A stretch of 64,000 bases of DNA from Acidobacteriota bacterium. Its GTDB lineage: Bacteria; Acidobacteriota; Vicinamibacteria; Marinacidobacterales; Marinacidobacteraceae. The stretch covers positions 66,144 to 130,143 of the forward strand of contig JAPPGX010000191.1 of NCBI GenBank assembly GCA_028877265.1, given 5' to 3'. The position numbers and the translations under genes are program-made. This document shows positions 9,573 through 52,071 of the stretch, piece after piece (the stretch's first letter is position 1; each line of letters starts with the position of its first letter). The notes beneath the pieces were generated by a model that did not search any database, was not told where the DNA came from, and was given only the letters and a program-made list of their open reading frames with translations.

Positions 9573-12500
9573 ATGCTGGACCGACTCTCCGCCTGTCTCA
9601 CATTGCATCTGGTTTCCGGGTTTCTGGTGATTCCCTCGGGAGCGGCAATCGCGCAGCCCGTCCCGGTGGACTCCTCGCAGCTTGGCGGTCTCCAGTGGCG
9701 CACCATCGGGCCCGACGGGAACCGGCTGAGCGCCGCCGCTGGCGAGTGGGGCAACCCCGATGTCATCTACTTCGGCGCCGCGTCCGGGGGGATCTGGAAG
9801 ACCAGCGACCGGGGCGTCGCCTGGGAGCCGGTCTTCGACGACCAGGAGGCGGCTTCGATCAGCGCGCTCGCCGTTTCACCGTCCCATCCCGGCCAGGTGT
9901 GGGCCGGGACCGGCGAGACCTTCATCATCCGGCCGGCGCTCGCGATGGGGAACGGCATCTACCGTTCCACCGACGGCGGGCGGTCCTTCCATCACCGGGG
10001 CCTCGAGGCAACCGGGCGCATCGCCCGCATCCTGGTCCATCCCGAGGACCCGGACCTCGTCTACGCCTGCGCCCTGGGCCACTCCTATGCGCCGCAGCCG
10101 GAGCGCGGGGTCTATCGGACGCGGGACGGAGGCGCGAACTGGGACCTGGTGCTCCATGTGGACGAAGACACCGGTTGTTCCGACCTGGCGATGGACCTCC
10201 GCCATCCCGAGCGGCTGCTGGCCGGGATGTGGCAGCTCCAGATCGACACCGGCGGGCTCCGGAGCGGGGGGCCGGGCAGCGGGCTCTACCGCTCGCGCGA
10301 CGGGGGCGACTCCTGGGAACGAATTTCGGGCGCGAAGTCCGATTCCGCCGGAGGCCGGGGCCTGCCCGGCGGCGAAGACCATCCCATCGGCAAGGTCGCC
10401 GTGGGGATCGCCCCGAGCGACCCCGACCGCTGGTACGCCCTGATCGAGGACGAGAGTCCGGGCTTCTACCGCTCCGACGACGGCGGCGATTCCTGGCGCC
10501 TCATGATGACCCACCACGATCTCGCCGAACGGGCGCCCTACTACGTCCGGATCGCCGTGGATTCCGCGGACGCCAACCGCGTCTATTTCGCCTCGGTGCT
10601 CTTCAGTACCACCGTGGACGGCGGCCGCACGTTGATCGAGACCTCCTACCGCGCCGGCGGCGACAACCACGACGTCTGGGTGGATCCCTGGATGCCGGAG
10701 CGCATCCTGGTCGGGCACGACGGGGGCGGCAGCATCTCCGAGAACCGCGGCGCGAGCTGGCGCCGGGTCGTACCGCCGGTGGCCCAGATGTACCACGTCA
10801 CCGTGGACGACCGGATCCCCTACCGCGTCTACGGGAACCGCCAGGACGGCTACTCCTACCGGGGCCCCAGCCGGACCCCCGGCGGCGGAATCCCGCTCGG
10901 ACTCTGGGAGGGGGTCGGGGGCTGCGAGAGCGGCTGGGCTACCCCCGAACCCCACGACGACAACGTGGTCTGGTCGGGGTGTTACGACGGCGGGCTCGAG
11001 ATCTACGACGACCGCACGGGACACGTCCGTGACATCCGGGTCTGGCCGGAGGCGGGCTACGGCTGGGCGCCCGCGGACCTGAAGGTGCGCTGGCACTGGA
11101 ACTTCCCGATGGTCCTGTCGCGCCACGAACCGGGGACCACCTGGGTCGGCAGCCAGTTCGTGCACAAGAGCACGAACCGGGGCCAGTCGTGGGAGACCAT
11201 CAGCCCCGACCTGACCACGAACGACAAGTCGCGCCAGCAGGACTCCGGCGGCATCACCGTCGACAACCTCTACACCTTCGACGGCTCGGTGCTCTTCGCG
11301 CTCGCCGAGTCACCGGTCCAGGCGGGCCAGCTCTGGGCCGGAAGCGTGGACGGGAAGGTCCACGTCACCACCGACGGCGGGGAGACCTGGCTCGACCGCA
11401 GCGGGAACGTGCCGGAGCTCGACCAGGACGCCTGGATCAAGTTCATCGAGCCCTCGCACCACGATCCGGAGACCGCCTACCTGGCGGTGAGCTGGCACCA
11501 GTCGGGCGACTTCCGGCCGCACGTCTACCGCACCCGGAATCTCGGGGAGAGCTGGGAGCGCATCAGCGGCGGAATCCCCGAGTCCCCGTTCTCGTTCGTC
11601 CACGTGGTGCGGGAGGACCCGGGCCGCGCCGGCATCCTCTTCGCCGGCACCGACAACAAGGTCTGGGCCAGCCTCGACGACGGCGAATCCTGGTTCTCCC
11701 TCCAGCTCGACATGCCGCCGGCGCCCATCTACGGGATGGTCATCCAGGAACGCTTCCAGGACCTGGTGGTCGCGACCTACGGCCGCGGCTTCTACATCCT
11801 GGACGGTATCGGTCCGCTTCGGGATCTCGCCGAGGCGTCGAACGATCCGCTCCGGGTCTTCGATTCGCCGACCGCGTGGCGGTTCCTGCCGCGGCAGAGC
11901 ATCAAGTCGGAGCCGGGCAGCCTGGTGACCGGCCGGAACGCTCCCTATGGCGCTCCCATCTCCTGGTGGCTCGACGAGGATGCAGCTTCCGATCGGGCCG
12001 AAATCGCGATCGTGAACGCCGCAGGGGAGACCGTGCGAACGCTTCGCGGTCCCGGAGCCGCCGGGCTTTCACGGGTGTACTGGGACCTCCGCGGTGATAC
12101 CCCCGACCGGGCCACCCTCCGGACCCGGCCTCCCGACCGGGACTGGGTGGAAATGGGCGAGGACGGGCAGCGCCGGATCCGCACGTGGGACCTCGACATC
12201 TTCCCCGGTTACCGCGGTCTGCTTCAGCCACCCGGGTCCTACACTGCGCGGGTCACGGTGGGGGAGCACGCCGCGGAGACCACCCTGCGGGTGGAGGTCG
12301 ATCCCGCATCCGCCGCCACCCCCGACGACATCGGGGAGAAGTACGCGTTCCTGAACGCCATCCACGACCAGTTGAACGAACTGGCGGAGATGGTGGACGA
12401 GCTGGAGTGGGTGCGCCGCGAGATCGAGGGGCTCCGGGAGCGCCACGCCGGCGACGAGCGGTTCACCGCGCTGCTCGAAAGTGCGGGTGAGATCGCCGGC

Positions 12501-12791
12501 ACCGCGATCGCCATCGAGGGAAGGTTCTTCGACGTGGGGCTCACCGGAGCCCGCGAGGACGCTTTCCGGGCGCCGATGCGGCTCTACGGCCGCCTTGGCG
12601 CGCTCGCGAACGACGCCGGCTGGGACGGCGCCGACTTCGCGCCCACCGACCAGCAGCGCGAAGTCCACCGGGTTCTCACGGAGCGGTTCGAAACGGCCCG
12701 CGGGGAATACCGCCGGTTGATGGACGAACAGCTTCCGCCATTCTGGCGGGCGCTCGCCGAGGCGCGCGCAGGAGACGGCGGTCCGGATTAA
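9573..12791 (+). CDS. Secreted VPS10/sortilin-like BNR (Asp-box) repeat protein, the type often annotated as a glycosyl hydrolase
   Basis: The protein is 1072 aa with a signal-like N terminus. It carries repeated Asp-box motifs: 'WKTSDRGVAW', 'YRSTDGGRSF', 'YRTRDGGANW', 'YRSRDGGDSW', 'YRSDDGGDSW', 'TTDGGETW' and 'SLDDGESW'. Confidence 0.8.
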   Translation: MLDRLSACLTLHLVSGFLVIPSGAAIAQPVPVDSSQLGGLQWRTIGPDGNRLSAAAGEWGNPDVIYFGAASGGIWKTSDRGVAWEPVFDDQEAASISALAVSPSHPGQVWAGTGETFIIRPALAMGNGIYRSTDGGRSFHHRGLEATGRIARILVHPEDPDLVYACALGHSYAPQPERGVYRTRDGGANWDLVLHVDEDTGCSDLAMDLRHPERLLAGMWQLQIDTGGLRSGGPGSGLYRSRDGGDSWERISGAKSDSAGGRGLPGGEDHPIGKVAVGIAPSDPDRWYALIEDESPGFYRSDDGGDSWRLMMTHHDLAERAPYYVRIAVDSADANRVYFASVLFSTTVDGGRTLIETSYRAGGDNHDVWVDPWMPERILVGHDGGGSISENRGASWRRVVPPVAQMYHVTVDDRIPYRVYGNRQDGYSYRGPSRTPGGGIPLGLWEGVGGCESGWATPEPHDDNVVWSGCYDGGLEIYDDRTGHVRDIRVWPEAGYGWAPADLKVRWHWNFPMVLSRHEPGTTWVGSQFVHKSTNRGQSWETISPDLTTNDKSRQQDSGGITVDNLYTFDGSVLFALAESPVQAGQLWAGSVDGKVHVTTDGGETWLDRSGNVPELDQDAWIKFIEPSHHDPETAYLAVSWHQSGDFRPHVYRTRNLGESWERISGGIPESPFSFVHVVREDPGRAGILFAGTDNKVWASLDDGESWFSLQLDMPPAPIYGMVIQERFQDLVVATYGRGFYILDGIGPLRDLAEASNDPLRVFDSPTAWRFLPRQSIKSEPGSLVTGRNAPYGAPISWWLDEDAASDRAEIAIVNAAGETVRTLRGPGAAGLSRVYWDLRGDTPDRATLRTRPPDRDWVEMGEDGQRRIRTWDLDIFPGYRGLLQPPGSYTARVTVGEHAAETTLRVEVDPASAATPDDIGEKYAFLNAIHDQLNELAEMVDELEWVRREIEGLRERHAGDERFTALLESAGEIAGTAIAIEGRFFDVGLTGAREDAFRAPMRLYGRLGALANDAGWDGADFAPTDQQREVHRVLTERFETARGEYRRLMDEQLPPFWRALAEARAGDGGPD

Positions 12792-35001: not shown

Positions 35002-36531
35002 GTGGGCTTGAGGAATCGCGTTCTCCTGGCGGCGATCCTTCTTGGCGGGGGATTTGTGTTTCCGGCGGCGGGCGGTTGCGCCCTGCGGTCGGGAGGTTCC
35101 CCCGACCTGGCGCAGGAGGCGGCCCCCGAACTGCCCTCCGACTTTGCCGAGAATCCAGCCAGCGGAGCCCGCCAGGCGCAGGAGTGGTGGCGGGCGTTCG
35201 CCGATCCCGCGCTCGACCACGTGGTCGAATCGGTACTGGACTCCAATTTCTCCGTGGCGGAAGCGGTAGCGCGGGTCGAGCAGGCCCGAACGCGGGCCCG
35301 GCTGGCCGACGCGGCGATCCTGCCCACGGTCGGAGCGAGCCTCACCGCGGAAACCTTCGACCTGCCCACGAACGCCGCGATCGGCGCCCAACTCGAGGAC
35401 CTCGGTCTCGATTTCCCGCTGCCCGACCGGCTGGGCTTCCCGACCTATACCCTGGGCGCGGACTTTGCCTACGAAGCGGATTTCTGGGGCCGCGTCCGGC
35501 ACACCGCACTCGCGGCGGGATCCGAACTGCTGGCCTCGGAGTTCGACCTGCGGGTCGCCCGCATCGGCATCCTCGCCGAGACGATCTCGGCCTACTTCGA
35601 AATCGGCCATCTCCGGCAACAACTCGCCATCGCTCGAGGGCACGTGGAACTGCTCGAGGAACGCGAGCGGCTGGTCGAGAGCCGCTACGAACGTGGGCTT
35701 GCCGTCTCGCTCGAACTGCACGGCGTGCGTCAGGCTCTCTCGAGCGCCCGGGCCGGCGTGCCGCAGGTCGAGAATCAACTCGCCGAGACCGAGTCGCGGC
35801 TCGCCGTGCTGCTGGGAGGCTACCGGGAGGATGTCGCGGCGATCCTTCCCGAATCCCTCTCCCCGGAATCTCCAGCCGAACCGGTGCCCGCAGGCATTCC
35901 GGCCGACCTCCTTTCGCAGCGCCCGGACGTGCAGGCCGCGGGTCACCGGCTGGAAGCCGCCGGACACACCGTCGAAGCCCGTCGGGCCGCGTTGATGCCG
36001 CAGCTTTCGCTCTCCGGATCCATTGGACTCCGGAGTACGGACGCCGGAGGCCTCTTCGACGTCAAGCAGTGGTTCACGAACCTCGCCGGCAACCTCCTTC
36101 GTCCGGTGTTCGACGGCGGCCGGCTCGCGAGCGGCGTGGAACTGGCCGAGGCCCGCTTCGACGAGTTGGCGGCGGCCTACGGCCGGACCATCGTTACCGC
36201 GGTCAACGAGGTGGAAGCGGCCCTGGCCACCCTCAGGAACGAAGGCCGGCGGCAGGAATCTCTCGCCGCGCAGCACGAGGAGGCCCGCGCCTCCGTCGAA
36301 GCTCAGTCCAGGCGCTATGAGGCGGGCATCAGCGGCTATGGCGATCTGCTCGATGCGAATGCCAGACTGCTGGATGCGGAATCGGCGCTCGCGGGTTCGG
36401 CGCGGAACCTGGCGCTCGCCCGCCTCGCCATCCACCGGGCTCTGGGGGGCGCCTGGACCGCCCCGGACGAGATGGCCAGCGCGCCGGCGAGCACGCCGGA
36501 TGCCCGCGCCAAAGGACCGGCCGACCGATGA
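35002..36531 (+). CDS. RND efflux outer-membrane factor lipoprotein (NodT family)
   Basis: A lipobox is present in LLGGGFVFPAAGGC. 'WWRAFADPALDHVVESVLDSNFSVAEAVARVEQAR' is the typical NodT N-terminal repeat. The second repeat reads 'LLSQRPDVQAAGHRLEAA'. Confidence 0.85.
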   Translation: MGLRNRVLLAAILLGGGFVFPAAGGCALRSGGSPDLAQEAAPELPSDFAENPASGARQAQEWWRAFADPALDHVVESVLDSNFSVAEAVARVEQARTRARLADAAILPTVGASLTAETFDLPTNAAIGAQLEDLGLDFPLPDRLGFPTYTLGADFAYEADFWGRVRHTALAAGSELLASEFDLRVARIGILAETISAYFEIGHLRQQLAIARGHVELLEERERLVESRYERGLAVSLELHGVRQALSSARAGVPQVENQLAETESRLAVLLGGYREDVAAILPESLSPESPAEPVPAGIPADLLSQRPDVQAAGHRLEAAGHTVEARRAALMPQLSLSGSIGLRSTDAGGLFDVKQWFTNLAGNLLRPVFDGGRLASGVELAEARFDELAAAYGRTIVTAVNEVEAALATLRNEGRRQESLAAQHEEARASVEAQSRRYEAGISGYGDLLDANARLLDAESALAGSARNLALARLAIHRALGGAWTAPDEMASAPASTPDARAKGPADR

Positions 36532-37745
36532 ATCGAACGAAGGGATTCATCCTGGCGGCGATCATCCTGCTGGGATCGTTCGGGATCGCAACCCTGCTGA
36601 TCGCGCAGCGGCCGGAGCCCGAGCGGCGCGAACCTCCCTCCCGGATTCCGTTCGTCGTCACGGCGCCCGCGGTCGCGGGTTCGGGGCCGATCCCGGTCCA
36701 CGGCGCCGGGACGGTCCGGCCCCGCGTCCAGGTGGAGGTGGCCGCCGGGGTGAGTGGACGGGTCGTCCGGGTTGATCCGGGCTTCGAGAGCGGCGGCCGG
36801 GTCAGCGAGGGTCAGGCGCTCTTCCGCCTCGACGACGCCGACTACCGCTTCCGGGTGGAGCAGGCCCGTTCCGGCGTCGCCGTACAGCAGGTGGAACTGC
36901 TGAAGGTCGAGGAGGAAGCGCGGATCGCCCGCGAGCAGTACGAAGCGTTCCAGAGCCGCCGTGGCGCCGCCGGGGACGCGGAAGCGAGTCCCCTGGCGCA
37001 CTGGGAGCCGCAGCTCGAGGCGGCGCGGGCCGGTGTGGAACGGGCCCGCGCGCTCCTCGCGGAAGCCGAACTCCTGCTCGCGCGAACCGAAGTTCGGGCG
37101 CCCTTCGACGCCGTGGTGCGCTCCGAGAGCGTCGGGGTCGGACAGTTCGTGACCGCAGGGGTCGGCGTCGGCCGGATTTACGCCTCCGATGCGGTCGAGA
37201 TCGTCGTCCCGCTGTCCGACGCCGATGCGGCGCTCGTCCCGGGTCTGTGGGACCTGAGGCCGGGAGTCGCGGATCGTCGGGCGGCGGCCCGGGTCACCGC
37301 GGACTACGGGACCGGCGCCTATGCCTGGGACGGGTACGTGGACCGGGTCGAGGCCGCACTGGATGAAACGACGCGCACCCTCGATGTGATCGTGCGCGTT
37401 CCGAACCCCTTCACGGGTGGTTCCCGGGTGCAAGCGGGAGAAGCGAGCGCGGACGCCGGATCCGCGCCGCCGCTCCTGATCGGCCAGTTCGCGAACGTCG
37501 AGATATCGGGGATCGCGCCGGAGGAGTACTTCCGGATCCGGCGGCTGGGGCTCCGGCCGGGCAACGAGGTCTGGGCGGTGGACGGCGAGGCGGTGACCAT
37601 CGTTCCGGTCCGCGTGCTGCAGCGCTTCGACGACACCGTCTACGTCACCGGCGGGCTGCAGGAAGGCCAGGAGGTAGTCCTGAGTGGCATTCAGTTCGCG
37701 ACCGAGGGACTGAGGGTGCGGACCGCCGCGAACCCGGACCCTTGA
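36528..37745 (+). CDS. RND efflux periplasmic adaptor (membrane fusion protein)
   Basis: The start overlaps the OMF stop as ATGA. An N-terminal TM anchor is followed by 'VSEGQALFRLDDADYR', a coiled-coil hairpin, 'TEVRAPFDAVV', and a beta-barrel/MPD ending 'VVLSGIQ'. Confidence 0.8.
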   Translation: MNRTKGFILAAIILLGSFGIATLLIAQRPEPERREPPSRIPFVVTAPAVAGSGPIPVHGAGTVRPRVQVEVAAGVSGRVVRVDPGFESGGRVSEGQALFRLDDADYRFRVEQARSGVAVQQVELLKVEEEARIAREQYEAFQSRRGAAGDAEASPLAHWEPQLEAARAGVERARALLAEAELLLARTEVRAPFDAVVRSESVGVGQFVTAGVGVGRIYASDAVEIVVPLSDADAALVPGLWDLRPGVADRRAAARVTADYGTGAYAWDGYVDRVEAALDETTRTLDVIVRVPNPFTGGSRVQAGEASADAGSAPPLLIGQFANVEISGIAPEEYFRIRRLGLRPGNEVWAVDGEAVTIVPVRVLQRFDDTVYVTGGLQEGQEVVLSGIQFATEGLRVRTAANPDP

Positions 37746-37854
37746 ACCTGCGGGACGTTGTAAGGCCCGGAGCGCAGGTCGATCGCCCGCAGTCGGATCC
37801 GCCGGGGTGGGGCGGAGGAGGAAGGACCTTGGGCGAGAATGCCGGTCAGGACGC

Positions 37855-38850
37855 ATGAGTGAAGACGTGCTCTCCCCGTTCCCGGAGGGTTGGTATTTCG
37901 TTACCACCCGGGGATCACTGGAGAAGGCGAGGCTCATCCAGAAGACCTGGATGGGAAAGGACATCGTCGTCTGGTGCGACGACGCCGGCGGAATCTCCGT
38001 GGCCGAGTCGGTCTGTCCTCACCTGGGGTCCGAACTGGGCCCCGCCGCCGGCGGCCGAGTGCGGGATGGCCGTCTCGTGTGTCCTTTTCACGGCTACGAG
38101 TTCGACGTCAGCGGGCAATGCGTCGCCACGCCCTTCGCCCCGCCGCCGAAGACCGCGAGGCTGAGGTCGTTCGAGACTCGGGAGGTCCTGGGCATCGTCT
38201 TCGCCTGGTGGGGAATCGACGGACGGCCCCCGCAGTGGAGCCTTCCCGAGGACCCGCCGGCCGGCGCCGACTGGTGCGAACCGGCGTTCCGGACTCTCCG
38301 GTTTCGGGGGCACCCCCAGGAAACGAGCGAGAACGCCGTGGACATGGCGCACCTCCGGTACGTGCACGGCTACGGCAACGTCGGCCGGGTCGGCAAGGTA
38401 ACGGTGGACGGCGCGTATCTGCGGAGCTGCTTTGATTTCAAGCGCACCCAGCGCATCGCCGGAGCCATCAATCTCACCTTCGACGTCTCCGCCACCGCGC
38501 ATGTCGTCGGACTCGGATACTCGCTCGTGGAGTTCCACGAGCGCTCCATTGGAATGGACGGACGCCTCTGGGTCCTTGCGACGCCCGTCGACGGCACGCT
38601 CATCGACCTGGTGCTGGTCGGACAGTTGCGAAGAATCCGGAAACCGAAGCGGCTGATCGTCGGGTTGCGGTTCCTGCCGCCTGCTCTCCGTACCGGGACC
38701 ATGAACAAGCTGATGCTGTTCTTCCAAAGGCACGACGTCATGCAGGACGTGGAGATCTGGAGCCGGAAGCGGTACCGGTCGCGCCCGAGCCTCAGCCGGG
38801 CCGACGGCGAGATCGGGTTGTACCGGCGCTACTGCAGGCAGTTCTACTAG
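37855..38850 (+). CDS. Rieske [2Fe-2S] non-heme-iron oxygenase (KshA / Neverland-like architecture)
   Basis: The Rieske motif is 'CPHLGSELG...(x19)...CPFHGYEF'. The mononuclear iron motif E-x3-D-x2-H-x4-H lies in 'ENAVDMAHLRYVHG'. The N terminus 'GWYFV' is typical for this class. I chose the ATG at 37855. Confidence 0.8.
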   Translation: MSEDVLSPFPEGWYFVTTRGSLEKARLIQKTWMGKDIVVWCDDAGGISVAESVCPHLGSELGPAAGGRVRDGRLVCPFHGYEFDVSGQCVATPFAPPPKTARLRSFETREVLGIVFAWWGIDGRPPQWSLPEDPPAGADWCEPAFRTLRFRGHPQETSENAVDMAHLRYVHGYGNVGRVGKVTVDGAYLRSCFDFKRTQRIAGAINLTFDVSATAHVVGLGYSLVEFHERSIGMDGRLWVLATPVDGTLIDLVLVGQLRRIRKPKRLIVGLRFLPPALRTGTMNKLMLFFQRHDVMQDVEIWSRKRYRSRPSLSRADGEIGLYRRYCRQFY

Positions 38851-38872: not shown

Positions 38873-40252
38873 TCAGGCGCTCCGGAACCGCCAGCCGTAC
38901 ATCACCCGGCCGTAGAAGTTGAACCACTTTCTGGCCTCCGGGTCCTCGAACGGATAGTCCGCGCCGAGCTGTCTCGCCGTGACGAGGCCGGACACGAAAC
39001 AGGTCTCCTGGCTGTTGACCAGGGTGTGCGCGCCACAGTGCCAACTCCGCCGCTTTCCCTGGACGAAGCGAAACAACTGGGTCAGGAAGGCGACGTGAGG
39101 CACGTCGTGCACGATGTGCTGAAACCACCACCTCTTGACGATCCTGCTCTCGTCGATACGGCTGATCGGGTTGTAGGTCACGAGACACGGCTTGTCCGAC
39201 GTGTTCGCCCAGGGCTGCTGGTTGTGCATGATGTAGGTGATCTCGTAGTTGTCGGGCCGCGCGCCGTACTGCTCGATGTGGTTGCTCCGGGTGGCGAGCG
39301 GCCTGGCCTCGTTGTCGGGGAGGACCGAGGCGTCCGAATGCACGACCGTGTGGTTGTGCAGTTCGCTTTCGTACCGGATCGAGGAGAGGAGCCAACCCTC
39401 CAGCCGCGTCGGCCTGTCGAGGAGCATCAGCGTCTGGTTCGCGTTGCACGCGAAGACGACTTCGTCGAAGGTTTCGGTCCTTCCGTCCTCGTCCTCCACG
39501 ACAACCTCGTTACGGCGCCGGTGGACCCTTCGCACCGGCCGGTTCAGATAGATCTTCTCGCGAAAGGCTGCGGACAGATCCCGGTAGATCCGCCGGGTGC
39601 CCTGATCCCAGGTCTGCATCGGCGTCGCGGTCTCGATGTCGAAGAAGTCCAGGTACCGCGAAAAGAGCGACGCCGGCATGTCGAACACGTTCGTCGCCAT
39701 CAGGAAGTTGACGAACATGGGCTTCAGGACCTTGTACCGGAAGTCCCCCGAGTACCTTCCCAGGTTCAGCAGCGCTCCCATGCTGACGTAGTTGAACGGG
39801 TTAAGGGAGCTGAGCAGCTTCGACCTCGAGACGTTGAGCCGGCCGAACCACTTCAGACGTCTCAGGAGACGCTGGAACTTCTGGATTTCCGGTTGCAGTT
39901 GCCTCCTGATGTCGGAGTCGAAGTCGTGGGCATAGATTCCGCCTCGATACTTCACGCTGTAGTTGAACCGCGTTTCGAGCAGCTCGATGCCGTGCTGTTG
40001 CATGAGCAGGACGAAGTGGTGGTATGCCGACGGTATGCACGCGGTGACCGAGATATCGAACGGCACCGTGCTGCCGTCGTCCTGCGGCATGTCCGCAGTG
40101 ATCGCATTGCCGCCGAGCTGCGCCTGCGCTTCGAAGAGCCGAAAATCGAAACGGTCCCGGTGGCGGTTGAGCGCCCACGCCGTCCCGAGCCCCGAGGCGC
40201 CCCCACCGACAATGGCAACCCTTCTCGGCGCGCCGCCCTTCGCTTCACCCAC
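38873..40252 (-). CDS. Rossmann-fold NAD(P)/FAD-dependent oxidoreductase (amine-oxidase/COG2907-like)
   Basis: The N-terminal dinucleotide motif is 'RVAIVGGGASGLGTAWAL...LFEAQAQLGGN'. The protein is 459 aa. The C-terminal 'WHCGAHTLVNSQETCFVSG' resembles the COG2907 tail. Confidence 0.7.
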   Translation of the reverse strand: MGEAKGGAPRRVAIVGGGASGLGTAWALNRHRDRFDFRLFEAQAQLGGNAITADMPQDDGSTVPFDISVTACIPSAYHHFVLLMQQHGIELLETRFNYSVKYRGGIYAHDFDSDIRRQLQPEIQKFQRLLRRLKWFGRLNVSRSKLLSSLNPFNYVSMGALLNLGRYSGDFRYKVLKPMFVNFLMATNVFDMPASLFSRYLDFFDIETATPMQTWDQGTRRIYRDLSAAFREKIYLNRPVRRVHRRRNEVVVEDEDGRTETFDEVVFACNANQTLMLLDRPTRLEGWLLSSIRYESELHNHTVVHSDASVLPDNEARPLATRSNHIEQYGARPDNYEITYIMHNQQPWANTSDKPCLVTYNPISRIDESRIVKRWWFQHIVHDVPHVAFLTQLFRFVQGKRRSWHCGAHTLVNSQETCFVSGLVTARQLGADYPFEDPEARKWFNFYGRVMYGWRFRSA

Positions 40253-40431
40253 ATTCCTACTCTACCTTTGGGGTGCGGCCGCCCCGTCCGCTCGCCGCCG
40301 CCGCAGTAGGCGGTCCGGGGACCCTGCCGACCCCTTGCCCGCCCGCTCCATCGACTAGACTCTGACCCGGACCATCCAGTGGCGGCGGATCGGTGGGGCT
40401 GTCGAGCCGCCTCGGCTGGAGGTTGAGCACC

Positions 40432-42450
40432 ATGAGCGAGGGCACCCGGTTTCCGATCCGAATCGCCGAGGAGTTGATCCTCCTCATGCTGGACGAGCAG
40501 AGCGGCTACCTCGAGATGGTTCCGAACTGGGACTTCTCCTGTGTCATGGCCGGGGCCGTGCTCGCCGACCTGGCCCTGGAGCGTCGCATCGAGACCGACC
40601 TGGAGCGGTTGTACCTGGTCGATCCCTCACCGACCGGAGATGAGTTGCTCGACCCGACGCTCAAGGACATCGCCGAATCCGACGAAAAATCGGACGCCCA
40701 GTTCTGGATCGAACGGAACACCCGCCAAGCCGACGAAATCGTCGCAGCCGCCCTCGAGCGCCTGGTGGAGCGGAACATCCTTACCCACGAGAGCGGCGGA
40801 TTCTGGGGGCTCTCGCGCTCTGTCGCCCGTTCAGGGACTTTTCCGACCCAGGCTGTCGCGACCCGCCGGGAATCCAAGGTGAGGGTCCTGAGCGTCATCC
40901 TGAACGACGAGATCCCGGACCCGCGGGACGCCATCCTGGTCGCGCTGATGCACACCTGCGGCGGCTTCAAGCTGCTGCTGGAGGAAGAGGACTACGAAGA
41001 GCGGCTCGCCCGCATCGAACTCGTCGCCAAGCTGGACCTCATCGGACGGACGGTCGCCGCCGCCGTGAAGGACAGCACGGCGAGGCCCAAGACCCGTCGC
41101 GTCGTTCAGACGAAGCCCATTCCCAAGCCTGGGTATCTCGTACTGCTACAGCGCGACTTCCTCTCCGGCAACATCTCGAAGGCGATGTACGGCATGTATC
41201 GAAAACACGGGCCGGTCGTCAGGATGCCCTTCAAGATCCGCGGCAAGCCCGTCGTTTCGTTGATGGGTGCCGATGTCAATCACTGGGTCAATCGGCACGG
41301 ACGGTTCTATCTCCGCTCGAAGGACTACATCGAAGGGCTGGAGCACGCGTTTGGCGCATCCCGGAGTCTCCCCGGAATGGATGGCGCCGAACACTATCGA
41401 ATGCGCAGGGAACTCCAGACTGCGTATTCCCGCGCCACGCTCGCGCAGCGGCTGCCGGAGCTGATCGACGACTGCCGGAAATCGCTGAGCCGTTGGAAGG
41501 AAGGGGATGTCTTCCGCGCCACCGAGAGCTTTCAGAACCACATCAGCAGTCAGATCTCCAATTTCGCGATGGGAGTGGATTGCAGCCACTATGTCGACGA
41601 ACTGTTGGCCTTTGAACACCGTGCACTGATAACGCGGGTCCAGGGCGCATTGCCGGATTTCATGCTGTCCACCCCAAGAATGAAACGGTATGGGAAGCGT
41701 GTCAGGGAACTCCAGGAGGCGATCACCGCGGGACACACGACGGCGCTGCGCAAGGGAAAGCCCCGGGATCTGGCCGACGCGATTCTCGATCTCCACAAGA
41801 GGGACCCGCAGTTCCTTCCCGAAACGGACCTCACCTTTCCCTTCGTGGCTTCCATGGTTGCGAGCATCTATCTCGGCAGCGGACTGGCCTTCACTGTTTA
41901 CAACATGGTTCGAAACCCGGACGTGTACGCGAGGGTCCGGAGCGAGGCCGAGTCGCTGTTCGGCAACGGTCGTGAACTTGCGGGAGATGACTTCAATCAC
42001 CAGAGCATCGACGTCACGGTGCGTCTCTGCATGGAATCCTCGCGTATGTACCCGGTGATTCCATGGCAGTTGAGAACGGTCATGAACGAGTGCATCGTCA
42101 GTGGTTACGAGATACCGCCGAAGACGATGTTGCTGATTTGCCAGACTGCGCCGCACTATGCCGAGGATCTGTACCGGGATCCGTTGAAGTTCGATATCGA
42201 TCGGTACTTGCCGGACCGGGCCGAGCATCTGCAACCGGGCGCCTATGCGCCCTACGGCCTGGGTACGCACATGTGCCTCGGCCACCGGTGGGTGGAACTT
42301 CAGATGGCCGTCAACGTCCTGCTCATCGCGCATCACCTGCAGCTCGAAGTGGTGCCCGGCAACTACAAGATGGGAATCAATCCGTTCCCGACCTTGGCCC
42401 CCAACAGGAAGCTGAAGTTCCGCGTCGCCGGGGTCCCGCGTCCCGTGTGA
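40432..42450 (+). CDS. Fusion protein: an N-terminal GPP34/GOLPH3-like domain joined to a C-terminal cytochrome P450
   Basis: GGAGG lies 10 nt upstream of the ATG at 40432. GPP34 blocks are 'IAEELILLMLDEQSGYL', 'VMAGAVLADLALERRI' and 'PDPRDAILVALMHTCG'. P450 blocks are the ExxR 'ESSR' followed by 'MYP' and the heme-Cys loop 'YAPYGLGTHMCLGHRW'. Confidence 0.8.
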   Translation: MSEGTRFPIRIAEELILLMLDEQSGYLEMVPNWDFSCVMAGAVLADLALERRIETDLERLYLVDPSPTGDELLDPTLKDIAESDEKSDAQFWIERNTRQADEIVAAALERLVERNILTHESGGFWGLSRSVARSGTFPTQAVATRRESKVRVLSVILNDEIPDPRDAILVALMHTCGGFKLLLEEEDYEERLARIELVAKLDLIGRTVAAAVKDSTARPKTRRVVQTKPIPKPGYLVLLQRDFLSGNISKAMYGMYRKHGPVVRMPFKIRGKPVVSLMGADVNHWVNRHGRFYLRSKDYIEGLEHAFGASRSLPGMDGAEHYRMRRELQTAYSRATLAQRLPELIDDCRKSLSRWKEGDVFRATESFQNHISSQISNFAMGVDCSHYVDELLAFEHRALITRVQGALPDFMLSTPRMKRYGKRVRELQEAITAGHTTALRKGKPRDLADAILDLHKRDPQFLPETDLTFPFVASMVASIYLGSGLAFTVYNMVRNPDVYARVRSEAESLFGNGRELAGDDFNHQSIDVTVRLCMESSRMYPVIPWQLRTVMNECIVSGYEIPPKTMLLICQTAPHYAEDLYRDPLKFDIDRYLPDRAEHLQPGAYAPYGLGTHMCLGHRWVELQMAVNVLLIAHHLQLEVVPGNYKMGINPFPTLAPNRKLKFRVAGVPRPV

Positions 42451-42517: not shown

Positions 42518-45500
42518 ATGAGTTCCGATCCAGGCAACCACGCGGAACCCCGTGGACCGATCGCCTACATGGCGAGCAACGGCGTGGCGTCCAACTTGCT
42601 GATGTTCGGCATCCTCGCGGTGGGCCTCGTGTCGCTGACCGGCCTCGAGCAGCAAGCGTGGCCCACGGTGCCTTTCAACCAGTTCGAGATCTCGGTGCCG
42701 TTCCCGGGCGCAACGCCCCAAGAGGTGGAGGAGGCCATCGTCGTCAAGATCGAGGATGAGGTCAGGGGATTGGCGGAGGTGAAGACGGTCCGGTCCGTAG
42801 CGGCCCCGGGAATGGCGTCCGTCAGGGTCGAAGTCAACTCCGGTACGGACATGGGCGCGAAGAGGGACGAAATCGAGTCGGCGGTCGCGCGGATTCAGAC
42901 CTTCCCGGGTGGGGCCGAGCGGCCCCAGATCCGTGAAATGACGAACGCCCAGAGCATGATGCGTCTCGTCCTCTACGGCGACGTTCCAGAGCGCTCGCTG
43001 AAGGAGCTCGCCCACCGGATCGAAGACGATCTCGCGTCGCTCCCGAACGTGTCCCTGGTCGAGACCAGCGGGGTGCGCAACTACGAGATCTCGATCGAAG
43101 TGCCGCTCGAGCGGCTGCGGGCCCTTGGGCTCACGCTGACCGACATCGCCAACACGGTTCGCCGCGGTTCCCTGGACCTGTCGGCGGGCAGCATCGATAC
43201 CGCGCAATCCCGGGTGCGGATTCGGACCCTCGGCCAGAGCTACGACCAGCAGGACTTCGAGGACATCGTCGTCCTCGGCCGCGCCGACGGCACGGTGGTG
43301 CGCCTGGGTGAGATTGCCGAGGTGCGCGACGGCTTCCACGACTCAGGTTTGCTGGTGCGGTACCAGGGCGAGCCAGCCGTGTTCGTCGAGGTTTCGCGAG
43401 CCGATGGCGAGAGGGTGATGGACGTGGCGCGCGCCGTTCGGGAACACGTCGCGAACGAGATAGCGCCCTCGCTCCCGGACGGCATGGGCATCGACATCTG
43501 GAACGACGACTCTTCGGTCTTCTCGGAACGTGCCCTCCTTCTCCTCAAGAATGGAGCCTTGGGGCTGTTGCTGGTCCTGATCGCGCTGGGTCTGTTTCTC
43601 CAGCTTCGGCTGGCGTTCTGGGTCGCCGTCGGCCTCGGCGTTTCCGCGATCGGCGCCCTGGCCGCCATGATGGTGTTCGACATCCCGCTCCACGAGATTT
43701 CGCTCTTCGCCTTCGTGCTCGCCATCGGCATCGTCGTGGACGATGCGATCGTCGTGTCGGAGCACATCCACGAGGAACGAAAGCGCGGCACGCCGGGACT
43801 CGCGGCGGCGATCCGGGGCGCGCGACGCATCAAGGTGCCGCTGGTCTTCGCGGTGCTGACGACCATCGTGGCGTTCCTTCCGCTGCTCTTCATACCCGCG
43901 GGGTTCGGAGAGGTGTGGAAGGCACTGCCGATCGTCGCTATTGCCACGCTGCTCTTTTCGCTGGTCGAATCGCTCCTGGTGCTGCCCAATCATCTGTCCC
44001 ATCATCTGCACGGCCCGGATTGGGCGCCCCGGACGGGCATGGAGCGGTTCGTCGCCCGGATCCAGAATCGGGTCGATTCCTGGTTGAACCGCTTCATCCA
44101 GGGACCCGTGGACCGCGGGATCCAGTTGGCGACGGACTGGCCCGGGGTGACGGTTTCGGCGGCCGTTGCGCTGCTCGTCCTGAGCATTTCCCTTCTTCCG
44201 GCCGGCATCGTTCCCACCACCTTCGCGACGAAGGTCGAAGGCGACTTCGCGATCGCCACCCTTGAGATGCCGGAAGGAACGACCGCGCCGCAAACGTACG
44301 CCGTGGCGCAACACCTGGAATCGGCCGGCCGCCGGGCCGTCGAGCGGCTCTCCCAAAGCCGGCCCGCTGACGCGCCTCCCCTCTTGTCCGGAGTTACGGT
44401 CGTCGTCGGCCAGCGGTCGCGGCTCGAAACCGGAGGCCTCAATCCCTCGCCCACTTTGAACCCGGAAGCCAATGTCGCGACCATCGAGTTCAAGCTCCTG
44501 AGCGCCCAGCTGCGGAGCATCACTTCGGGAGACGTCGTGCAGGCATGGCGCGAGGAGGTGGGTGTCCTGCCTCAGGTACGCGCGGTCACCTTCATCAGCG
44601 AGATCTACACATTGGGCAACCCCGTCGAGGCGGCGCTGTCCCACCCGGATCCGGAACGCCTCAACGAGATCGCGAATTCCACCGTCGCCGGCCTCGGCAG
44701 GGTCGGAGGCGTCTTCGACATACGCTCGGATCACACTCCCGGGATCCCGGAAGTCCAGGTGGGACTACTTCCCGAAGCGCGCACCCTGGGCCTCACGCTG
44801 GATGATCTTGCCCGGCAGACGCGAGCGGCCTTCTTCGGTGAGGAGGCCGTGCGGGTGCAGCGGGGACGTGACGAAGTTCGGGTCTACGTCCGGTTACCCG
44901 AGGAGCAACGGAACGCGATCACCGACGTCGAGAGTTACCGGCTCCGGACGCCAACTGGCGCCGACGTGCCGGTCAGCCGCGTGGCTTCGCTGAGTTCGGG
45001 CACCTCGCCGCCGGCCATCCGGCGCCAGGACGGCCAGCGGATTGTGACCGTTACCGCGGATGTCGATCCGAGTGTGACTTCCGCCGCGACCGCCAACGAC
45101 ATTCTGGAGAACACCATCCTGGCGGGGCTCATCGCGGAGAACCCGGAACTGACCTATACCTTCGGAGGGGAACAGCAACAACAGCTCGACTCCCTGGGCG
45201 GTCTCTATCGCGGATTCGTGATCGCGCTGCTCCTGATCTTCGCGCTGCTGGCCATTCCCCTGCGCTCCTACACGAAACCGTTCATTGTCATGGCCATCAT
45301 CCCGTTCGGGTTCGTCGGGGTGATCCTGGGTCACTGGATGCTGGGGGTCGCCGTGAGCGCGGAGTCCTTCGTCGGGATCTTCGGGTTGGCCGGCGTGGTC
45401 GTCAACGACTCCCTGGTGATGATCGATTTCACCGACCAGAAGCTCCGGGACGGCATCCCGGTGCGAACCGCGATCATCGAGGGCGCGAAGGGACGCTTCC

Positions 45501-45721
45501 GCCCGATCATGCTGACTTCCCTGACGACCTTCCTGGGTTTCACCCCCCTGATTCTCGAGGACGCGATTCAGGCGCAGTTCTTTGTTCCCTTCTCCGCCTC
45601 GATCGGTTGCGGCATTCTCTTCACCACGGTGATCATCATGTTTCTGGTGCCCGCGCTTTCCTCGATCCACCTGCGCCTTGGCTCGGCCCGGCAACAACTG
45701 GCCGCCGAGGGTTCCGGTTGA
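42518..45721 (+). CDS. RND efflux permease (AcrB/HAE-like inner-membrane transporter)
   Basis: The protein is 1067 aa. Blocks are 'ASNLLMFGILAVGLVSL', the TM4 block 'LAIGIVVDDAIVVSEHI', and the second half-repeat 'AGVVVNDSLVMIDF'. It lies 67 nt downstream of the P450 gene on the same strand. Confidence 0.85.
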   Translation: MSSDPGNHAEPRGPIAYMASNGVASNLLMFGILAVGLVSLTGLEQQAWPTVPFNQFEISVPFPGATPQEVEEAIVVKIEDEVRGLAEVKTVRSVAAPGMASVRVEVNSGTDMGAKRDEIESAVARIQTFPGGAERPQIREMTNAQSMMRLVLYGDVPERSLKELAHRIEDDLASLPNVSLVETSGVRNYEISIEVPLERLRALGLTLTDIANTVRRGSLDLSAGSIDTAQSRVRIRTLGQSYDQQDFEDIVVLGRADGTVVRLGEIAEVRDGFHDSGLLVRYQGEPAVFVEVSRADGERVMDVARAVREHVANEIAPSLPDGMGIDIWNDDSSVFSERALLLLKNGALGLLLVLIALGLFLQLRLAFWVAVGLGVSAIGALAAMMVFDIPLHEISLFAFVLAIGIVVDDAIVVSEHIHEERKRGTPGLAAAIRGARRIKVPLVFAVLTTIVAFLPLLFIPAGFGEVWKALPIVAIATLLFSLVESLLVLPNHLSHHLHGPDWAPRTGMERFVARIQNRVDSWLNRFIQGPVDRGIQLATDWPGVTVSAAVALLVLSISLLPAGIVPTTFATKVEGDFAIATLEMPEGTTAPQTYAVAQHLESAGRRAVERLSQSRPADAPPLLSGVTVVVGQRSRLETGGLNPSPTLNPEANVATIEFKLLSAQLRSITSGDVVQAWREEVGVLPQVRAVTFISEIYTLGNPVEAALSHPDPERLNEIANSTVAGLGRVGGVFDIRSDHTPGIPEVQVGLLPEARTLGLTLDDLARQTRAAFFGEEAVRVQRGRDEVRVYVRLPEEQRNAITDVESYRLRTPTGADVPVSRVASLSSGTSPPAIRRQDGQRIVTVTADVDPSVTSAATANDILENTILAGLIAENPELTYTFGGEQQQQLDSLGGLYRGFVIALLLIFALLAIPLRSYTKPFIVMAIIPFGFVGVILGHWMLGVAVSAESFVGIFGLAGVVVNDSLVMIDFTDQKLRDGIPVRTAIIEGAKGRFRPIMLTSLTTFLGFTPLILEDAIQAQFFVPFSASIGCGILFTTVIIMFLVPALSSIHLRLGSARQQLAAEGSG

Positions 45722-45758: not shown

Positions 45759-46814
45759 CTAGCCCGAAAGGGGCCGGCGCGCCACGAAACAGTAGAGCGG
45801 GGTGAAGATCCCCGTCTTGCCCCCCGCGACGTAAGCGTCCGCGGTCCGGTCCAGGAGAGCCACCACCTCCGCCGAGCCCCTCGGGAACGCACCGAAGAAC
45901 TCGGCCAGCCGGACTCCCCACCGCAGCGCCTTGCGGCCCATCGGAATCCGGCGGAACGCGCTGCCGGGCAACCCGCGGAGGGTTTCCATGGGCTGATACC
46001 ACGGCGTGTCCTGACGGTGCCCGTCGGCGGCGAGGTCCTCACCCTCCAGGACTTCGAATCCTGCGGTTGCGAGCGCCCGGTTGACCTCCCCGAACGTCGC
46101 AATGTCCTTGAGCGCGATGCCGTGCATGAGCTCCTGCTTGATGGCGCGGTGCCGGTCGTCCCCCGGGTCGTACAGGTCCGTCATGCACATTTCCTGGCCC
46201 CAGAAGAGGGCTCCAGGTTTCAGCACTCGGTAGATCTCGGCGAACGCGCCCGCCTTGTCGTCCGCGTGGCAGGTTGATTCGATCGCGTAGCCGCGGTCGA
46301 AGGTCCGGTCCGCGATCGCGCTCATGTCCATGAAGCTGCACTGGAGACAGTCGGTCTGGCCGGCGAGCCCCGCGGCCTCGTTCAAGCGCCTTGCGTTGTT
46401 GCACTGGACTTCGCTGGCGTTGATTCCGACAACGCGGACTCCAACCTCCCTCGCCACGCGGCGCATCGGACCGCCGATCCCGCATCCGACATCCACGACG
46501 GTCATGCCCGGACGCAGTTCGAGCCTGGACATCATGAGTCTCTGGTGCCGGATCTTGGAGTCCTCCAGGCTTTCGCCGGGCGACAGCGGCGCAAAGTGCA
46601 GGGACTCTCCCCAACCCATGACCATGAACTCGGTGCAAAGGTCGTAGTACTCCTTGACGGTCCGCGTGTGGTCGTACCCCCCGTCGGCATCCCCCCGGGG
46701 GGATGCCCTGTCGGTCCATCCTTCGAAGTCCCGCACGCGGTTCGTGACGTTTGATCCGCCGAACGCAGTTCTCAACCCATCGGATAGCCCACGGATTTGT
46801 CCGGTGAACTTCAC
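45759..46814 (-). CDS. Sterol 24-C-methyltransferase (ERG6/SMT) family SAM-dependent methyltransferase
   Basis: Blocks, compared with ERG6/SMT1 from memory: 'EYYDLCTEFMVMGWGESLHFAP' (SMT region I, YEYGWGxSFHF); SAM motif 'VVDVGCGIGGP'; 'YAIESTCHA' (ERG6 YAIEATCHA); 'IYRVLKPGA'; 'PWYQPM'; and the C-terminal 'YVAGGKTGIFTPLYCFVARRP' (ERG6 LVAGGKSKLFTPMMLFVARKP). The start at 46814 is GTG. Confidence 0.85.
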   Translation of the reverse strand: MKFTGQIRGLSDGLRTAFGGSNVTNRVRDFEGWTDRASPRGDADGGYDHTRTVKEYYDLCTEFMVMGWGESLHFAPLSPGESLEDSKIRHQRLMMSRLELRPGMTVVDVGCGIGGPMRRVAREVGVRVVGINASEVQCNNARRLNEAAGLAGQTDCLQCSFMDMSAIADRTFDRGYAIESTCHADDKAGAFAEIYRVLKPGALFWGQEMCMTDLYDPGDDRHRAIKQELMHGIALKDIATFGEVNRALATAGFEVLEGEDLAADGHRQDTPWYQPMETLRGLPGSAFRRIPMGRKALRWGVRLAEFFGAFPRGSAEVVALLDRTADAYVAGGKTGIFTPLYCFVARRPLSG

Positions 46815-51222: not shown

Positions 51223-52011
51223 TTAACCGGGCTCTTCGACGAGGGACAACGTCAGCTCCGCGAACGGCTCCTCCCGCACACTCGCGGGCAGTTCCTGAAT
51301 GAGGCCGATCGGTTCATGGGGTGTGACATCGGCGTTCCGGGCGGTGAACGTCGCCCCGCTGTCGGTCCCCGAGTCGTAGCCGATCAGCTCCACCCCGATT
51401 CGTTCCATCCAGCATCCACCGGCTTCCATCAGGGGCATCCCGCTCACCCCGACGAACCAGTCGGGGCTGGGTGCGATCATCGAGACCAGAGTCATCAGCG
51501 GGTGTTCTGCCGTCGCCTCGAAGATCAGCCCGACCGATCCCGGCGACGGGAAGGAGGCCTCCGAGCCTCTCACGCAGGTGGTGCTCCCACCGCGATCCGC
51601 CTCCGCGTCGATTTCCCGGCAGAGCGAGGACACGCTGCCGGTCTCAGCCATGTTCTCGATGCCCGGAGTGGCAATGCCGCCGGAACTCCAGAACGAAACC
51701 TCCGGCGCGTGGGCTGCCCCGGCCACGCGGGAAAAGTGCGCTCCCGACGGGAAGGGCGGCTGGTTGCCGTGCGAGGACGCATTCCAGACGGCCCGGAACG
51801 TCACCGCGTAGGTCGCTGAATCCGGGCACTCGGGTTCGGGTTCCGGCATCGGCGTCGGAGCCGGCGAAGGCGGAGCCGGGGGCGCAGGCGCCGGGGGAGG
51901 CGTCGGCGCCGGCGTGGAAGGTGCATCGGACCCGCACGCCAGCGCGAACAGAGCGAGGACGAGACAGGCGAACGCGCCAAGGCGGGAAGTGCGCGTGACT
52001 GACGGGAGCAT
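51223..52011 (-). CDS. Spondin_N domain lipoprotein with a Pro/Ala-rich linker
   Basis: The ATG at 52011 gives MLPSVTRTSRLGAFACLVLALFALACG, which contains a lipobox. A linker PSTPAPTPPPAPAPPAPPSPAPTPMPEPEPE follows. Spondin_N blocks are 'YAVTFRAVWNASSH', 'AHFSRVAGAAH' and 'SMIAPSPDWFVGVSG'. Confidence 0.7.
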   Translation of the reverse strand: MLPSVTRTSRLGAFACLVLALFALACGSDAPSTPAPTPPPAPAPPAPPSPAPTPMPEPEPECPDSATYAVTFRAVWNASSHGNQPPFPSGAHFSRVAGAAHAPEVSFWSSGGIATPGIENMAETGSVSSLCREIDAEADRGGSTTCVRGSEASFPSPGSVGLIFEATAEHPLMTLVSMIAPSPDWFVGVSGMPLMEAGGCWMERIGVELIGYDSGTDSGATFTARNADVTPHEPIGLIQELPASVREEPFAELTLSLVEEPG

Positions 52012-52071
52012 CCCCCGCCACGGTAGCGCAGCGCCCGACGGATTCACCGAGCAGCCCCGTCCGCGCGCCGG

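Follow-up and report, generated by a model that had tools for sequence, protein, structure and literature searches.

What does a Rieske non-heme-iron oxygenase do among the genes of an efflux pump, and what does it oxidize? The question is raised by a 64-kb stretch of DNA from an Acidobacteriota bacterium (contig JAPPGX010000191.1; the whole stretch is called the window here), in which one such gene, at positions 37855 to 38850, shares its surroundings with a methyltransferase, a cytochrome P450, and the components of a transporter. The answer that we favor, with moderate confidence, is that the protein acts as a sterol-tailoring oxygenase in a horizontally spread island with which sponge-associated bacteria would edit and export sterols. 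The argument lies in the company that the gene keeps. Across related loci, a sterol methyltransferase (SMT), a P450 related to CYP46 and CYP51, genes resembling sdmA and sdmB, and transporters that either contain a sterol-sensing domain (SSD) or belong to the resistance-nodulation-division (RND) type recur, and this set suggests that the substrate is a sterol and that the product is exported. A sequence-only reading of the same DNA had anticipated part of this; it did not include the island shared by sponge symbionts across phyla, which is the main point here.

The Rieske protein and its iron sites

The gene and its cofactor sites are as follows, with residues counted from the ATG at 37855.

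37855..38850, + strand: Rieske non-heme-iron oxygenase of the KshA_C class, 331 amino acids (aa) (open reading frame [ORF], Pfam, PDB matches, AlphaFold2/Foldseek)
38014..38091, + strand: Rieske [2Fe-2S] motif C54-x-H56-x19-C76-x2-H79 (regular expression on the translation)
38329..38367, + strand: mononuclear-iron motif E159-x3-D163-x2-H166-x4-H171 (regular expression on the translation)
38746..38748, + strand: D298, predicted third iron ligand (aligned to D304 of Mycobacterium tuberculosis KshA, PDB 2zyl, in the QDVEIW block)

The full ORF, 37807..38850 on the + strand, opens with a GTG and would encode 347 aa; the alternative ATG at 37855, with an AGGA a few bases 5' of it, yields the 331 aa used here. 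Conservation among orthologues starts at L6, so that either start is possible. The G+C content at third codon positions is 0.84 and marks the coding frame. Residues 54-79 (CPHLGSELGPAAGGRVRDGRLVCPFH) fit C-x-H-x19-C-x2-H, and residues 159-171 (ENAVDMAHLRYVH) fit E-x3-D-x2-H-x4-H, in which D163 is the bridging Asp. D304, the KshA residue aligned with D298, is one that we take to be an iron ligand in that structure. The Rieske ligands C54, H56, C76, and H79, together with D163, H166, H171, D298, and the E159 motif, are invariant in 31 orthologues. These motifs are real and not chance matches. The sequence-only reading had called both cofactor sites complete, which the presence and invariance of the residues bear out. 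D298, the third ligand, is an addition to the motifs given there.

Pfam recognizes a Rieske domain (PF00355, E=5.7e-16) and a KshA_C domain (PF19298, E=1.9e-24, 87.3 bits) that matches profile positions 2-207 of 207. The AlphaFold2 model has a mean predicted local distance difference test (pLDDT) score of 81.5 and a predicted template modeling (pTM) score of 0.81. The protein has neither a hydrophobic anchor nor a hydrophobic N terminus; its maximal 19-residue Kyte-Doolittle value, 1.6, comes from a stretch within a beta-strand that belongs to the catalytic domain. As already proposed from the sequence, this is an alpha-only protein of about 330 aa with no adjacent redox partner: no beta-subunit, ferredoxin, or reductase domain occurs in any substantial ORF of the window. 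None of the three recurs in the 10-kb regions around the orthologue across 83 related loci, and no conserved small ferredoxin genes were found in the orthologue flanks.

Relationship to named Rieske oxygenases

To which branch of the Rieske oxygenases does the protein belong? Judged by domain content, profiles, and fold, it is an alpha-only oxygenase of the KshA_C class and not of the VanA/DdmC/SdmA class. A phmmer search of PDB sequences ranks KshA best (3.8e-24 to 2.5e-20), with DdmC at 1.7e-13 and SxtT at about 1e-13. A family profile gives 8.5e-32 for KshA, 2e-19 for SxtT/GxtA, and 1.5e-13 for DdmC. Foldseek, run with the AlphaFold2 model, again places KshA on top, with a template modeling (TM) score of 0.78-0.81 at 22-23% identity, followed by GxtA/SxtT at about 0.7 (up to 0.72) and DdmC/NdmA at about 0.65. 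The saxitoxin hydroxylases SxtT and GxtA and the O- and N-demethylases DdmC and NdmA are likewise alpha-only, are of similar size, and supply the next-best structures (TM 0.65-0.72), but the profile matches of SxtT/GxtA and DdmC are clearly weaker than that of KshA. A VanA/DdmC-type O-demethylase is rejected, since the protein has no VanA_C Pfam match and both the DdmC scores and the TM of about 0.65 lie below those of KshA. The sequence-only reading had named clustering with VanA or DdmC as the outcome that would speak against it; what was found instead is a KshA_C domain, with KshA scores and fold far ahead of DdmC.

That reading had also grouped the protein with both KshA and SdmA, and only the first half of the grouping holds, by domain, profile, and fold. 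The NCBIfam SdmA equivalog, NF052579, reaches 37 bits against a cutoff of 600 and covers residues 13-94, the Rieske domain only. An SdmA-like protein from a related locus (L034:3724-4851) aligns with the N-terminal 190 residues only, at 25% identity. SdmA is likewise a bacterial Rieske oxygenase for sterol tailoring, but SdmA-like proteins carry a VanA_C catalytic domain where the window protein has KshA_C, and with the 37 bits this rejects the grouping at the family level. The window also contains no SdmB-like short-chain dehydrogenase/reductase.

How close, then, is KshA itself? The window protein shares with it (PDB 2zyl, 4qck, 4qdc, 4qdd, 4qdf) the pairing of Rieske and KshA_C domains, the alpha-only organization, the fold, equal iron ligands, the bridging Asp, and the conserved QDVEIW block, and E159-x3-D163-x2-H166-x4-H171 aligns with N-x2-D-x2-H-x4-H of KshA. 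The HMMER alignment to KshA, however, is limited to the N-terminal half plus the final 36 residues. The Rieske spacer measures 19 residues in the window family versus 16 in KshA, and the protein has 331 aa versus 386-394, about 55 fewer. These two differences and the 22-23% identity speak strongly against a KshA orthologue. The surroundings differ as well: unlike KshA, the window gene has no KshB, KstD, or Hsa neighbors and does have a methyltransferase, a P450, and exporters.

Another comparison is with Neverland, DAF-36, and Des7, which are also single-component Rieske enzymes and have the sterol nucleus as their target. Neverland-type cholesterol 7-desaturases are eukaryotic (animals and protists) and membrane bound, whereas the window protein lacks a hydrophobic anchor. 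No Neverland sequence is found among the homologues listed or among the PDB matches. A full-length homologue from Streptomyces racemochromogenes (P0217, 384 aa, 33% identity) bears the UniRef name "cholesterol 7-desaturase," which comes from an annotation rule and is not functional evidence.

The protein search returned more than 2,000 matches. Among the 120 best, to which the statements on architecture and identity refer, all have the Rieske plus KshA_C architecture, all are at least 66% identical to the window protein, and none is functionally named. In a library of representatives at 50% identity, the family extends down to a member at 58% (P0121); the next full-length representatives stand at about 51%, followed by full-length paralogues at 30-42%. 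By these comparisons, the window protein is a member of a distinct, uncharacterized subfamily of KshA_C Rieske oxygenases. Two acidimicrobiial entries (P0154/P0281, 645 aa, 88 contigs) have a 40%-identical Rieske plus KshA_C part fused to a 300-residue N-terminal region. A GPP34-Rieske fusion was considered for P0154 and rejected; its 300 N-terminal residues have no Pfam match and no likeness to the GPP34 domain of the window.

A recurrent island

Which genes accompany the Rieske gene, and how constantly? The regions 10 kb to each side of its orthologue were compared in the 83 related loci, which come from more than ten phyla and 65 of which have complete flanks. The neighbors in the window are listed here with the number of loci in which each recurs and the median identity to the window protein.

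35002..36531, + strand: outer-membrane efflux protein (OEP), Pfam OEP 3e-44, which opens the OEP-MFP-Rieske run; 28/83 loci, median 52%
36528..37745, + strand: membrane fusion protein (MFP) of the HlyD type, Pfam HlyD_3, ending about 110 bp 5' of the Rieske gene; 34/83 loci, median 54%
38873..40252, - strand: flavin adenine dinucleotide (FAD)-dependent flavoprotein of the amine oxidase family, Pfam Amino_oxidase and NAD_binding_8, convergent with the Rieske gene; 35/83 loci, median 81.5%
40393..42450, + strand: GPP34-cytochrome P450 fusion ("GPP34_L" form), Pfam GPP34 (24-226) and p450 (243-664); GPP34 domain in 74/83 loci, median 46%, and P450 domain in 73/83 loci, median 47%
42518..45721, + strand: RND inner-membrane transporter (permease) of the AcrB family, Pfam ACR_tran 4.7e-153; 37/83 loci, median 69%
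45759..46814, - strand: sterol C-24-methyltransferase-like, S-adenosylmethionine-dependent methyltransferase (SMT), Pfam CMAS, Methyltransf_11, and Sterol_MT_C (59 bits); 35/83 loci, median 68.5%

In the window, therefore, the tailoring enzymes interrupt the three pump components, with OEP and MFP on one side and the RND permease on the other. Where both flanks are complete, the GPP34-P450 is present in 61 of 65 loci, an RND or MMPL transporter in 53, the SMT in 31, and the flavoprotein in 28. The Rieske orthologue lies no more than 500 bp from the P450 in 25 of the 73 loci that have one; in the window, the GPP34-P450 starts 1.5 kb downstream of the Rieske gene. Order and orientation of the genes vary between phyla, which argues for functional linkage and not for mere synteny. 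The island context is retained even at 58% identity, where the orthologue (P0121) adjoins an MMPL/SSD transporter and a GPP34-P450, and it is gone in paralogues of 35-42% identity (P0136 and P0291), whose surroundings are unrelated to sterols and so say nothing about function.

What do the partner enzymes resemble? The nearest solved relatives of the P450 are CYP46A1 (cholesterol 24-hydroxylase), CYP170A1, and CYP51. Compared with the window protein, orthologues of the fusion are either about 65-97% or about 40-48% identical. Members of both groups pair with one Rieske family, pointing to two or more subfamilies of GPP34-P450. Sterol_MT_C is present in all 120 matches listed for the SMT, and in one source the protein is annotated as "sterol 24-C-methyltransferase"; no solved sterol methyltransferase that could anchor the window SMT was found in the PDB. 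Of all the island proteins, the flavoprotein is conserved best (72-97% identity across phyla). Its best PDB match is LkcE (6e-27), with the Propionibacterium fatty-acid isomerase more distant. Fatty-acid methyltransferases have FAD oxidoreductase partners that act on methylene products, and by this analogy the flavoprotein may act on a methylene product of the SMT.

The transporters offer a further clue. De novo clustering of the ORFs reveals two families of MMPL/HAE3 transporters with Sterol-sensing/Patched matches, of which these are examples.

L082:3976-6453, + strand: MMPL/HAE3 transporter
L048:14497-16824, - strand: MMPL/HAE3 transporter
L087:5328-7727, + strand: MMPL/HAE3 transporter

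Of the 13 Dehalococcoidia/Chloroflexota loci, all without an OEP, MFP, or RND gene, 12 contain one family; the second is found in Alphaproteobacteria, Nitrospirales, and other loci. These SSD-containing transporters stand in for the RND permease in 23 loci, and the two types never occur in one locus. The HpnN and BstA lipid transporters belong to the RND superfamily too. The MMPL proteins of the island match HpnN, BstA, and Patched/sterol-sensing models weakly, with scores far under the equivalog cutoffs, and the window pump differs from HpnN and BstA in being a tripartite RND system of the multidrug type.

Genes resembling sdmA (Rieske plus VanA_C) and sdmB are found no farther than 10 kb from the orthologue in metagenome-assembled genomes (MAGs) of Nitrospirales and Binatia, as judged by NCBIfam models.

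L034:3724-4851, - strand: SdmA-/SdmB-like locus; the SdmA-like protein scores 407 bits over model positions 4-344 of 351
L038:4600-5724, - strand: SdmA-/SdmB-like locus

The SdmB-like match reaches 303 bits over the full model length; it and the SdmA-like match are below the cutoff of 600.

Five acidobacteriotal loci (L003, L010, L012, L015, and L032) share a set of genes 3' of the Rieske gene, at about 14.5-18 kb in each locus. The set consists of an unannotated 474-aa protein, a second RND permease (observed in L003), and a GMC oxidoreductase, of a class to which cholesterol oxidases belong, together with its Gluconate_2-dh3 partner; three of the loci add a thiolase.

Distribution and horizontal spread

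How widely is the family distributed? A scan of GTDB with one genome per species finds at least 585 genome stretches that encode a relative; the details that follow concern the best 80. All of these are MAGs, at 64-98% identity, from more than ten phyla. They include Acidobacteriota (Vicinamibacteria, Bryobacterales, Terriglobia), Alphaproteobacteria, Gammaproteobacteria, Rhodothermales, Nitrospirales, Nitrospinota, Latescibacterota, Binatia, and Dehalococcoidia, as well as "Candidatus Poriferihabitaceae," "Candidatus Porisulfidus," "Candidatus Palauibacter," and "Candidatus Versatilivorator." The closest relatives of the window protein are Acidobacteria/Vicinamibacteria MAGs at 91-98%. Names of sponge metagenome bins are common among the relatives, and the SB06xx series includes sponge Entoporibacteria. 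One related locus, L038 (JAAXIB010000027), comes from isolate Plut_88904, whose name presumably refers to a coral (Porites lutea) and not to a sponge. Going by that name, the island may also occur outside sponges.

Several observations speak of horizontal transfer. Identity of the Rieske protein between phyla stays at 64-76% (best 80), and in a neighbor-joining tree, drawn without support values, Binatia, Alphaproteobacteria, Gammaproteobacteria, and Rhodothermales are each scattered among several clades. In the window, the G+C content is 64.4% from the Rieske gene through the SMT, versus about 70% in the flanks and in OEP/MFP. The pump itself is divided: the RND permease has 65% G+C and OEP and MFP a host-like 70-71%. 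With identities across phyla of 69% for the permease versus about 52% for OEP/MFP, the permease is apparently carried along with the island; composition and conservation suggest that the outer components are local and not island borne. As for scars of a mobile element, the window has no tRNA gene and no convincing flanking repeats.

A proposed sterol edit-and-export pathway

Published work supplies pieces of the picture. The GPP34-P450 architecture was described in a 2025 study as occurring only in sponge symbionts, in many phyla, and was proposed to bind phosphatidylinositol 4-phosphate (PI4P) and interfere with phagocytosis; the main text mentions no sterol and no Rieske, SMT/methyltransferase, or transporter/efflux neighbors (PMC11706023). 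The taxonomic spread of those GPP34_L proteins matches that of the island, in which they are linked to the Rieske gene in 73 of the 83 loci. Of 10 sponge-symbiont SMTs that Brown et al. assayed in vitro, 8 methylated desmosterol, and some built a 24-isopropyl side chain (PMC10070321); in the supplements of that 2023 paper there are no protein sequences, and Rieske, P450, and RND go unmentioned. Holert et al. reported in 2018 a KshA "cluster IV" made up of sponge MAG proteins only, for which they suggested horizontal transfer and a catabolic role (PMC5790920); this cluster may be the Rieske family of the window. In Capsaspora, a Rieske C7-desaturase, a P450 C22-desaturase, and an SMT turn acquired cholesterol into ergosterol, and these enzyme classes (Rieske, P450, SMT) are those of the island (PMC4967820). 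None of the literature searched connects the Rieske, SMT, GPP34-P450, and transporter pieces.

How might the parts work together? Electrons would come from a ferredoxin or reductase encoded elsewhere in the genome and enter the [2Fe-2S] center on C54, H56, C76, and H79; from there, the bridging Asp163 would relay them to the mononuclear Fe(II), whose predicted ligands are H166, H171, and D298. The path from the Rieske center to Fe(II) is the established mechanism of Rieske oxygenases. O2 would be activated at the Fe(II), and a C-H bond of the lipid substrate would be hydroxylated or desaturated; candidate reactions are desaturation at C7(8), as by Neverland, and hydroxylation of a ring, as by KshA. 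The GPP34-P450 would be the constant partner of this step, and the flavoprotein, the sterol C-24 methyltransferase, and the RND superfamily transporter would be frequent ones. The transporter, a tripartite RND system in diderms and an SSD-containing MMPL protein elsewhere, would extract the tailored sterol from the cytoplasmic membrane. A sterol is, on the strength of the gene neighborhood, most likely the substrate. The sequence-only reading had considered a steroid or triterpenoid ring substrate plausible in view of the nearby SMT and P450 genes, and the comparative context now adds SMTs with Sterol_MT_C, SdmA/B-like genes, and sterol-sensing transporters that recur from locus to locus; the substrate is still one that we infer.

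Weighing the alternatives

How well does the edit-and-export proposal stand up? Six points weigh against it. (i) The SMT and the flavoprotein are each present in only about half of the loci. (ii) No oxidosqualene cyclase or squalene epoxidase occurs in the window or recurs in the flanks, so that the source of sterol is assumed and host sterols are a plausible input. (iii) The Rieske family is known from sequences alone. (iv) At an identity of only 22-23%, neither the substrate nor the regiochemistry of KshA can be transferred. (v) The RND pump of the window is of a generic multidrug type by NCBIfam and matches no BstA model. (vi) The link to sponges derives from MAG names, one check of the SB06xx series, and the published distribution of GPP34_L, and not from sample metadata.

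The first and fifth of these points also lend something to the rival that survives best, which is that the island detoxifies lipophiles other than sterols, such as sponge terpenoids, brominated alkaloids, or other lipids, with the Rieske enzyme and P450 oxidizing them and the RND system expelling them. Rieske enzymes and P450s are classic oxidizers of xenobiotics, and a generic multidrug RND pump with its OEP and MFP would suit the task. We nevertheless consider this rather unlikely. The methyltransferase has a Sterol_MT_C domain, some loci contain SdmA/SdmB-like genes, and transporters with sterol-sensing domains replace the RND pump in 23 of them. The very high conservation across phyla, moreover, suits one universal host molecule better than the species-specific chemistry of sponges.

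A sterol could also be eaten and not edited. Could the Rieske protein be a catabolic 3-ketosteroid 9-alpha-hydroxylase, that is, a KshA orthologue that opens ring B of host steroids as a carbon source? KshA is its best PDB match by both sequence and fold, and the sponge-only cluster IV was read as catabolic (PMC5790920). This is less probable still, given the divergence in identity, spacer, and length described above, and the recurrent neighbors are an anabolic methyltransferase, a P450, and exporters. Clustering the ORFs of the 83 loci, which involved no search by name, yielded no recurrent steroid-catabolic gene, whether of the KstD, Hsa, or KshB type. Nor do KshB, KstD, or other 9,10-seco genes occur in the window, a weak negative in that such genes can be unlinked. 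Finally, that the Rieske protein is a mere iron-sulfur electron donor for the GPP34-P450 is barely credible: in most loci no more than 10 kb separates its gene from that of the P450 (no more than 500 bp in the 25 noted above) and no ferredoxin is found in the flanks, but a full catalytic domain with an invariant 2-His-1-carboxylate triad is unexpected in a pure electron carrier, and Rieske centers, as textbooks have it, generally have potentials too high to reduce P450s.

With sterol tailoring and export thus preferred, a broader proposal can be put forward, although only tentatively. The Rieske enzyme, the GPP34-P450, the flavoprotein, the SMT, and the RND/MMPL exporter might form one mobile module, acquired by unrelated bacteria as they became symbionts of sponges (and perhaps corals), that converts host sterols and places the products in or beyond the cell envelope.

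Implications for sponge sterols

Why would such an island matter? It ties together three threads of the literature: sponge-only KshA homologues, which may be this family (PMC5790920), the SMTs (PMC10070321), and the GPP34-P450 fusions (PMC11706023). The SMTs of sponge symbionts already complicate the use of 24-isopropylcholestane as the "oldest animal" biomarker (PMC10070321). If the island does edit sterols, bacteria would have a specific way, open to experiment, of altering which sterols a sponge contains; the GPP34-P450 family would gain a different function, and the island would be a candidate determinant of symbiosis, horizontally spread over more than ten phyla. If the proposal of a single mobile module were also true, symbionts would be the source of some "sponge" sterols, and the GPP34-P450 would be a sterol-handling device, instead of or besides an antiphagocytic effector that binds PI4P. 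The Rieske enzyme, as the most constant partner of the P450, makes a good biochemical entry point.

Other features of the window

A scan for promoters and terminators between 34.7 and 47.2 kb gave counts not above those of shuffled controls. Farther from the Rieske gene, two proteins have eukaryote-like domains.

51223-52047, - strand: Spondin_N protein
9573-12791, + strand: Sortilin-Vps10/BNR protein

Both fit a host-associated lifestyle, and a Spondin_N gene is also found near the SMT in a related Joint Genome Institute contig (L089).

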